From: Escherichia coli | GTDB lineage: Bacteria > Pseudomonadota > Gammaproteobacteria > Enterobacterales > Enterobacteriaceae | Direction: 5' to 3' (one strand) | Length of the DNA: 40,339 nucleotides | Assembly: GCF_003334815.1 (NCBI RefSeq) | Contig: NZ_QOWO01000034.1 | In this document: positions 34,593 through 35,417 of the stretch, piece after piece | How the letters are laid out: the number at the start of each line of letters is the position of its first letter | Numbering within the stretch: position 1 is the stretch's first letter | Made by a program: the position numbers and the translations under genes | Notes under the pieces: model-generated | Database searches by the model: none | What the model saw: only the letters and a program-made list of their open reading frames with translations | What the model was told of the DNA's origin: nothing

Positions 34593-34934
34593 ATGAAAAC
34601 CTCAAAGACTGTGGCAAAACTATTATTTGTTGTCGGGGCGCTGGTTTATCTGGTTGGGCTATGGATCTCATGCCCATTGTTAAGTGGAAAAGGCTATTTT
34701 CTTGGCGTGTTAATGACAGCAACTTTTGGCAACTATGCATATCTTCGCGCAGAAAAACTCGGGCAACTGGATGATTTTTTTACCCATATCTGCCAGTTAG
34801 TTGCGTTAATCACTATCGGTCTCTTGTTTATCGGTGTTTTAAACGCACCTATCAATACTTATGAAATGGTGATCTATCCCATCGCCTTTTTTGTCTGCTT
34901 GTTTGGTCAAATGCGTTTGTTTCGCTCGGCATGA
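34593..34934 (+). CDS. yiaB: YiaA/YiaB-family inner-membrane protein
   Basis: Track ORF 34551..34934 trimmed to ATG at 34593 (MKTSKTVAKLLFVVGALVYLVGLW...) after ggaga RBS, 113 aa; start choice between the Met at 34581 and the Met at 34593 is uncertain. Confidence 0.75.
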   Translation: MKTSKTVAKLLFVVGALVYLVGLWISCPLLSGKGYFLGVLMTATFGNYAYLRAEKLGQLDDFFTHICQLVALITIGLLFIGVLNAPINTYEMVIYPIAFFVCLFGQMRLFRSA

Positions 34935-34979
34935 GCAACATAAAGCTCTTACATATTCAGGAATGAAAGGAATACTGTG

Positions 34980-35417
34980 ATGGACAACAAAATATCAACC
35001 TATTCACCGGCCTTTAGTATTGTGTCATGGATAGCTCTCGTTGGTGGTATCGTTACCTATCTGTTAGGGCTATGGAATGCAGAGATGCAGTTAAATGAAA
35101 AAGGATATTATTTTGCCGTACTGGTATTAGGACTGTTTTCTGCGGCGTCTTATCAAAAGACCGTTCGGGACAAGTATGAAGGCATACCGACCACTTCCAT
35201 TTATTATATGACCTGCCTGACTGTCTTTATTATCTCTGTTGCATTACTGATGGTAGGTCTGTGGAATGCGACATTATTACTCAGCGAAAAAGGTTTTTAT
35301 GGACTGGCTTTCTTCTTAAGCTTGTTTGGTGCAGTAGCGGTGCAGAAAAATATTCGTGATGCCGGAATAAACCCACCAAAAGAAACACAGGTTACCCAGG
35401 AAGAATACAGCGAATAA
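34980..35417 (+). CDS. yiaA: YiaA/YiaB-family inner-membrane protein (two internal repeats)
   Basis: ATG at 34980 ([23 protein letters not shown]...), 145 aa; contains two copies of the GLWN..(E)KG(Y/F)(Y/F) module also seen in yiaB. Confidence 0.8.

Follow-up and report, generated by a model that had tools for sequence, protein, structure and literature searches.

The closest described system for the two genes analyzed here is the family that bears their names. The YiaAB family (Pfam PF05360, TCDB 9.B.44) is built from a two-helix repeat that is already known, being the repeat that defines the Pfam entry "yiaA/B two helix domain" and that is represented in NCBIfam and TCDB 9.B.44. The intragenic duplication leading from 2-TMS to 4-TMS proteins is likewise in print for this family (TC 9.B.44), which is named beside the VIC channels and the F-ATPase c subunits as an instance of such a duplication (PMC3061005). 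YiaA is among the better-conserved bacterial membrane proteins without assigned function, solved structure, or phenotype, and a literature search found no experiment on the YiaA or YiaB protein. Many text matches for "yiaA" or "YiaB" proved to be misspellings of yjaA, a phylotyping gene, or of YjaB, an acetyltransferase, and others were a YIDD-to-YIAA mutant motif or a keyword match to "IAA"; none of them is informative on the genes. A second point of reference is provided by the small inner-membrane proteins of the sigma-32 and stress regulons of Escherichia coli, which make up a general class and not a sequence family.

Here, we place the yiaB-yiaA pair of an E. coli genome in this context by combining sequence comparison, profile searches, structure prediction, and analysis of gene neighborhoods. 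As a discovery, the pair carries little weight, since standard databases and the literature already contain both genes, their family, its two-helix repeat, and the duplication within the gene. What the analysis adds is that the second module of YiaB falls below Pfam significance, that yiaB is young and fast-evolving, that the conserved polar residues are found at the membrane interfaces only, and that the xylose neighborhood is lineage-specific. Taken as a whole, we lean slightly toward an explanation in which YiaA and YiaB are hairpin-duplicated membrane proteins of the YiaAB family that would serve as a scaffold made under stress, outside xylose catabolism.

The yiaB-yiaA locus

The DNA analyzed, referred to below as the window, is a stretch of 40,339 nucleotides from E. 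coli (NCBI RefSeq assembly GCF_003334815.1, contig NZ_QOWO01000034.1). By sequence comparison, positions 34400 to 35500 of the window match the MG1655 genome of E. coli K-12 at every base, in reverse complement. Open reading frames and the MG1655 annotation define two genes for inner-membrane proteins on the plus strand, yiaB (b3563; 34593 to 34934, ATG at 34593 and stop at 34934, 113 amino acids) and yiaA (b3562; 34980 to 35417, ATG at 34980 and stop at 35417, 145 amino acids), both of which are labeled "PF05360 family inner membrane protein" in MG1655. The pair is flanked by xylB and the convergent wecH. The sequence-only reading of this DNA had placed the genes directly after xylB, and this location holds, with yiaB starting 168 nt past the end of xylB (34424) on the same strand; the three peptide motifs that it quoted are also all present as written.

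Among complete E. coli genomes, yiaA was found in 5420 of 5426, and a 1101-nt query spanning the yiaB-yiaA region was matched in all 5426, with at least 80% of the query covered in 5301. The reading frame of yiaB is intact in the window.

Several observations on the surrounding DNA and on other strains can be set beside these. The final 10 kb of the window differs from MG1655 at only three bases, at 31998 (xylA), 37165 (glyQ), and 39513 (glyS), none of them inside yiaB or yiaA, and the source of the window is a K-12-like strain other than the MG1655 reference. The MG1655 small RNA xylZ (b4834) is annotated at window positions 32796 to 32955, a region that runs from the 3' end of xylA into the spacer before xylB and in which Rfam returned no family match. 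Above gathering score, Rfam identified the sok antitoxin RNA (70.1 bits; 40187 to 40326, the region of the K-12 sokA pseudogene) and the ES036 sRNA (46.1 bits; 21314 to 21356). In E. coli BE311, an IS1 copy lies inside yiaA about 14 nt after codon 42 (positions 881 to 2095 of locus L084). In E. coli ABWA45, a 109-nt miniature element lies in yiaA after codon 12 (positions 139 to 247 of locus L085); the element has inverted ends resembling those of IS5 (GGAAGGTGCGAATAAG) and a target duplication of 4 nt, and the annotation of the gene places its start at a new position downstream.

Hairpin repeats in YiaA and YiaB

Both proteins can be assigned with high confidence to the YiaAB family (Pfam PF05360, TCDB 9.B.44) as four-helix inner-membrane proteins. 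YiaB scored 171.6 bits against NCBIfam NF008492 (YiaB; cutoff, 130) and YiaA scored 197.8 bits against NF008482 (YiaA; cutoff, 150), and a full-length BLASTP comparison of the two gave 31% identity over 110 collinear residues (E = 2e-12). The claim that yiaB and yiaA are tandem paralogs is borne out by these scores. Each protein also carries the PF05360 domain twice, the second domain of YiaB lying below Pfam significance (0.31).

The hairpin unit can be written as a helix, GLWNA, a turn of 3 to 4 residues, (N/S)EKG(Y/F)Y, a second helix, and QKxVRD, and YiaA has the motif from GLWNA through the turn and (N/S)EKG(Y/F)Y to QKxVRD in both of its modules. Module 1 of YiaA (amino acids 12 to 64; 35013 to 35171, plus strand) consists of a helix, a 16-residue turn segment, a helix, and QKTVRD and matches the full Pfam model (positions 1 to 53) with an E value of 1.1e-20. 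Module 2 (amino acids 75 to 127; 35202 to 35360, plus strand) has the same layout, ends in QKNIRD, and matches the full length of the model at 1.7e-18. In YiaB, module 1 (amino acids 1 to 56; 34593 to 34760, plus strand) reads helix, GLWISCPLLSGKGYF, helix and is matched at 3.6e-9, and module 2 (amino acids 57 to 113; 34761 to 34931, plus strand) is a degenerate copy in which GVLNAPINTYEMVIY replaces GLWNA..SEKGFY, with a Pfam E value of 0.31. YiaB keeps the family motif in part, as GLW..SGKGY in module 1 and G..NA..E..Y in module 2. The QKxVRD motif is gone from both YiaB modules, and in the E. coli protein, most of the second turn motif is gone as well, including the second W and KG. The YiaB orthologues of Citrobacter and Superficieibacter present intermediate module 2 motifs, GVWNAPLAPIEKALY and GLWNEPIALSQKIIY, and the YiaB subfamily has a conserved signature of its own, CPL(L/F)SGKGYFLGVL.

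Similarity between halves was scored by Smith-Waterman alignment against 2000 composition-preserving shuffles and expressed as z. The two halves of YiaA are strongly similar (z = 16.3; none of the 2000 shuffles scored as high), and its internal repeat is directly demonstrable from the protein sequence. Between proteins, similarity was found for YiaA-1 and YiaB-1 (z = 9.5), YiaA-2 and YiaB-2 (z = 12.1), and YiaA-2 and YiaB-1 (z = 7.3), with none for YiaA-1 and YiaB-2 (z = 0.5). Self-alignment of YiaB gave no similarity between its modules (z = -0.1), and direct self-alignment of the Citrobacter orthologues gave no repeat signal either (z = 0.3 to 0.4); that of Superficieibacter is the only orthologue with such a signal (z = 4.5).

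Profiles tell more. Aligned against each other, the family profiles of module 1 and module 2, based on 44 diverse homologues, match across all 58 columns with an HHalign E value of 2.4e-29. Module 1 of YiaB matches the module 1 HMM with an E value of 8e-11 (28.1 bits, versus 16.1 bits with the module 2 HMM), and module 2 matches the module 2 HMM with an E value of 6.5e-11; the corresponding HHalign E values are 3.8e-16 for YiaB module 1 against family module 1 and 8.3e-14 for YiaB module 2. Within the YiaB subfamily, module 1 and module 2 profiles are only weakly similar (HHalign probability, 15%; E = 0.0017). The second half of YiaB is a true copy of family module 2, one that is visible only by way of YiaA and the family profiles. 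The sequence-only reading had proposed an internal duplication in each protein; for YiaA, this stands on the shuffle test and the two PF05360 domains, whereas for YiaB, the second copy fails by self-alignment, a check which that reading had itself put forward, and is recovered by profiles. The repeat is visible at the protein level only and not in the DNA, where 32 of 60 positions around the two YiaA motifs are identical.

As a separate observation, four putative one-module YiaA-like proteins were encountered, P0169 (84 amino acids), P0248 (81 amino acids), P0240 (90 amino acids), and P0261 (79 amino acids). In each, the first helix of module 1 is fused to the second helix of module 2, with the junction precisely at the GLWNA..EKG motif, which suggests an in-frame deletion between the two repeats.

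Order and age of the duplications

Two-module proteins occur in Enterobacterales, Betaproteobacteria, other Gammaproteobacteria, Bacteroidota, Bacillaceae, Chloroflexi, Acidobacteria, Campylobacteraceae, and Desulfobacterota. In a genome scan that used an alignment of 11 sequences as query, the two-module homologues showed 53 to 66% identity to E. coli YiaA, and the proteins of Bacteroidota and Bacillaceae showed 55 to 65%. For an uncharacterized, dispensable membrane protein of 145 amino acids, conservation of YiaA across phyla is unusually high, or else reflects lateral spread.

The range of yiaB is far narrower. Among the fetched loci, yiaB-type genes were found only adjoining yiaA, in Escherichia, Citrobacter, and Superficieibacter, with none in the loci of Phytobacter, Cedecea, and Serratia. 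A database search added only Escherichia albertii, Escherichia fergusonii, and the Klebsiella oxytoca group, the clusters numbering 141 for YiaB but more than 7900 in the case of YiaA, and the gene is missing from many Enterobacterales that retain yiaA. It also evolves about 3.5 times faster, with a dN between E. coli and Citrobacter of 0.34 for yiaB and 0.10 for yiaA. In close pairs, yiaB has a dN/dS of 0.09 (Escherichia) or 0.13 (Citrobacter), values that indicate that the gene is under purifying selection.

These ranges and rates give an order of events. As the two-module form is found in many phyla, and yiaB is found in few Enterobacteriaceae and evolves faster, the intragenic duplication came first and the gene duplication later. 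Distances among modules, measured on YiaA-type sequences only, are 0.67 to 0.68 between module 1 and module 2 and 0.52 to 0.55 for the same module across phyla. YiaB modules were assigned by HMM, and in four of the four YiaB orthologues tested, module 1 is matched best by the module 1 HMM and module 2 by the module 2 HMM. The proposal of two rounds of duplication, intragenic and then at the level of the gene, is upheld by these module-specific matches, with which the taxon ranges agree. The hairpin duplication is thus ancient and common to the whole YiaAB family across phyla, yiaA is the conserved member of ancestral type, and yiaB is a young tandem copy of yiaA limited to some Enterobacteriaceae.

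Predicted structure and topology

AlphaFold2 models run with family alignments predict that YiaA and YiaB each form two hairpins, with four transmembrane helices in all, in keeping with the family. The helices of YiaA span residues 10 to 33, 38 to 66, 73 to 96, and 101 to 130 (pLDDT, 91.8; pTM, 0.83) and those of YiaB span residues 5 to 26, 30 to 55, 61 to 84, and 89 to 112 (pLDDT, 89.8; pTM, 0.80). All four helices are long, and the hairpin turns have 3 to 4 residues. As each module has two membrane helices, both modules would therefore share the same in/out orientation. We infer that the two modules lie side by side about a pseudo-twofold axis perpendicular to the membrane. An antiparallel pairing of the two halves, which the sequence-only reading had raised, is not expected between modules on this count of two helices per module in the AlphaFold2 models and would occur only within each hairpin.

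The predicted topology was taken from the positive-inside rule only, by which the N and C termini would be cytoplasmic and both hairpin tips would be at the periplasmic face. YiaA has 7 lysine and arginine residues in the N terminus, central loop, and C terminus versus 2 at the hairpin tips, and the means for the YiaAB family are 5.2 and 2.2, respectively.

The distribution of conserved residues follows the same plan. In 45 diverse members, the positions with at least 80% identity include N33, E40, K41, and G42 and N96, E103, K104, and G105 at the tips and Q59, K60, R63, and D64 and Q122, K123, N124, R126, and D127 at the inner ends. Every conserved polar residue in these members is located at a membrane interface, forming two rings, and strongly polar residues make up no more than 2% in the four helix cores.

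Comparison with solved structures identified none related to YiaA or YiaB by sequence and none specifically by fold. Solved channels and transporters gave no match better than generic helix-bundle matches, and in a fold search of AFDB50, the matches listed were all family members.

Proposed role and alternatives

When these features are placed into physiological context, links to stress come to the fore, all of them indirect. Control of yiaA by sigma-32 is mentioned in a single line of a paper devoted to a different topic (PMC10519446), a SoxS site was assigned to yiaB in Salmonella from a ChIP peak (PMC10268841), and a YiaAB protein of Variovorax, a distant species, was 26-fold up in biofilm in one transcriptome (PMC7494200). 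Both genes are dispensable, as the viable reduced-genome strain DGF-298 has both yiaB and yiaA deleted (PMC10652928); for yiaA, the natural strains with an insertion inside the gene point the same way.

It may be proposed, with low confidence, that YiaA is a compact membrane scaffold. A scaffolding or binding role is suggested, again with low confidence, by the positions of the conserved residues: the interfacial polar rings could bind a ubiquitous ligand, for instance, the head groups of lipids, YiaA itself, or a common membrane partner. A YiaA-type protein of this kind would be made under stress, apart from xylose catabolism, and YiaB may be a diverged partner or a subfunctionalized copy, which, to judge from its sequence, has lost the inner ring. 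A more specific joint reading, which we regard as doubtful, is that the outer N/E/K ring and the inner Q/K/R/D ring mark a widespread but unrecognized membrane function, performed by a stress-induced, oligomerizing assembly that binds lipids or a partner and in which YiaB would be a modulating hetero-oligomer partner.

The main rival to a scaffold is an oligomeric channel or small-solute transporter formed by YiaA-type proteins, with YiaB as a variant subunit, which we consider unlikely, though it deserves to be taken seriously. Such a role is the premise on which TCDB lists the family (TC 9.B.44), which stands in print beside the VIC channels and F-ATPase c subunits (PMC3061005), and a channel would be analogous to other proteins duplicated from 2-TMS to 4-TMS. 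Small-residue patterns in helices 2 and 4 (GLFSA and LFGA) and the cross-phylum identity of 55 to 65% fit tight oligomer packing; such identity would also be compatible with precise molecular machinery such as an oligomeric pore. Against it, the four helix cores have no conserved polar or charged residue, and solved channels and transporters are matched only generically. Overexpression of yiaB was picked in round 1 of a screen for exporters conferring Ala-Ala tolerance but was lost by rounds 2 and 3 (PMC10299036), and among 80 loci, no transport gene was a conserved neighbor.

That YiaB is a decaying duplicate without a function of its own, so that only YiaA matters, seems improbable to us. 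Decay could account for the loss of the near-invariant QKxVRD and, in E. coli, of the second W and KG, for the 3.5-fold higher dN, and for the absence of yiaB from many Enterobacterales with yiaA, but it sits poorly with the low dN/dS values in both genera, with the intact frame and the match of the region in every complete E. coli genome, with the conserved signature of the subfamily, and with a confident four-helix AlphaFold2 model.

Gene neighborhood, transcription, and xylose

A stress-made scaffold outside xylose catabolism, the reading to which we lean, has also to be weighed against the position of the genes downstream of xylAB. E. coli, Citrobacter, Superficieibacter, and Phytobacter share the order xylA-xylB-(yiaB)-yiaA-wecH. 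Across 80 loci, xylA, xylB, and wecH neighbors were found in only 5, all of them in Enterobacteriaceae close to E. coli. Clustering of neighbors in the 80 loci identified no family-wide partner and only clade-level synteny, the recurring neighbors being a Crp/Fnr-like regulator, an ABC ATPase (attributable to chance), RluF, and an acetyltransferase. The association of the YiaAB family with xylose genes is therefore not conserved across taxa and is lineage-specific.

The Crp/Fnr-like regulator recurs in Bacteroidota. In 14 loci from several families of this phylum (L016, L022, L026, L029, L032, L042, L050, L051, L052, L056, L062, L067, L078, and L082), a gene for a 187-amino-acid protein with a cNMP-binding domain (E = 5.7e-11) precedes the yiaA homologue in the same orientation, an arrangement that can be counted among the indirect links to stress. 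It is adjacent to the homologue in 13 of the 14 and about 650 nt upstream of the match, with a distance of 1215 nt in L082.

Within the window, a perfect 14-bp hairpin without a U-run follows the xylB stop (34427 to 34458, plus strand; RNA fold, -21.5 kcal/mol). The terminator scan did not call this hairpin, and it is not a canonical intrinsic terminator; candidate roles are protection of the 3' end or weak termination. It bears on read-through from xylAB into yiaB, which may occur as far as the sequence alone goes. A second hairpin, followed by UUUUACUU, lies between the convergent yiaA and wecH (35423 to 35460; RNA fold, -21.2 kcal/mol) and is likely the terminator at the end of yiaA. A terminator-like site inside yiaB (34868 to 34886) was rejected as being at chance level, with 1 found versus 1.1 expected. 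Scans for a sigma-70 and a sigma-32 consensus upstream of yiaB and yiaA gave nothing convincing. A published analysis (PMC10127797) assigns yiaB and yiaA to two transcription units, each with a promoter of its own.

As the synteny is limited to one lineage, a xylose-specific role is unlikely. The view that yiaB and yiaA are appendages of the xylose operon, co-transcribed with xylAB and providing relief from sugar or sugar-phosphate at the membrane, is very improbable: the 168-nt same-strand spacing, the hairpin after xylB that may terminate poorly, the lack of a detected consensus promoter in the xylB-yiaB spacer, and the shared gene order would suit it, but the association is confined to 5 of 80 loci with unrelated neighbors in other phyla, the genes are described as separate units (PMC10127797), yiaA is described as sigma-32 controlled (PMC10519446), and an engineered Zymomonas uses xylose with xylAB plus only truncated yiaB' and yiaA' (PMC5930841). 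The link to xylAB that the sequence-only reading had implied hence comes down to local synteny. Together with the interfacial polar residues, the same-orientation hairpins, and the young age and fast evolution of yiaB, with its loss of the inner-face motif, the lack of a conserved xylose link narrows the experiments that would be worthwhile.

Comparison with known systems

Placed beside the small inner-membrane proteins of the sigma-32 regulon, YiaA is alike in being small, nonessential, and cited as sigma-32 controlled, and differs in that no sigma-32 consensus is recognizable upstream of yiaA.

The c subunit of the F-type ATPase, with its duplicated forms, offers a further comparison. As in the YiaAB family, its unit is a tight helical hairpin, tandem duplication gives four helices, and conserved residues occur at the hairpin turn. 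In contrast, there is no detectable sequence similarity or specific fold similarity between the c subunit and YiaA, which is without a buried carboxylate or any other mid-membrane polar residue, and YiaA loci have no ATPase genes nearby. The likeness is one of building plan only.

Within the YiaAB family itself, the comparison is direct. The proteins encoded in the window are its founding members, with sequences identical to those of MG1655 b3562 and b3563.
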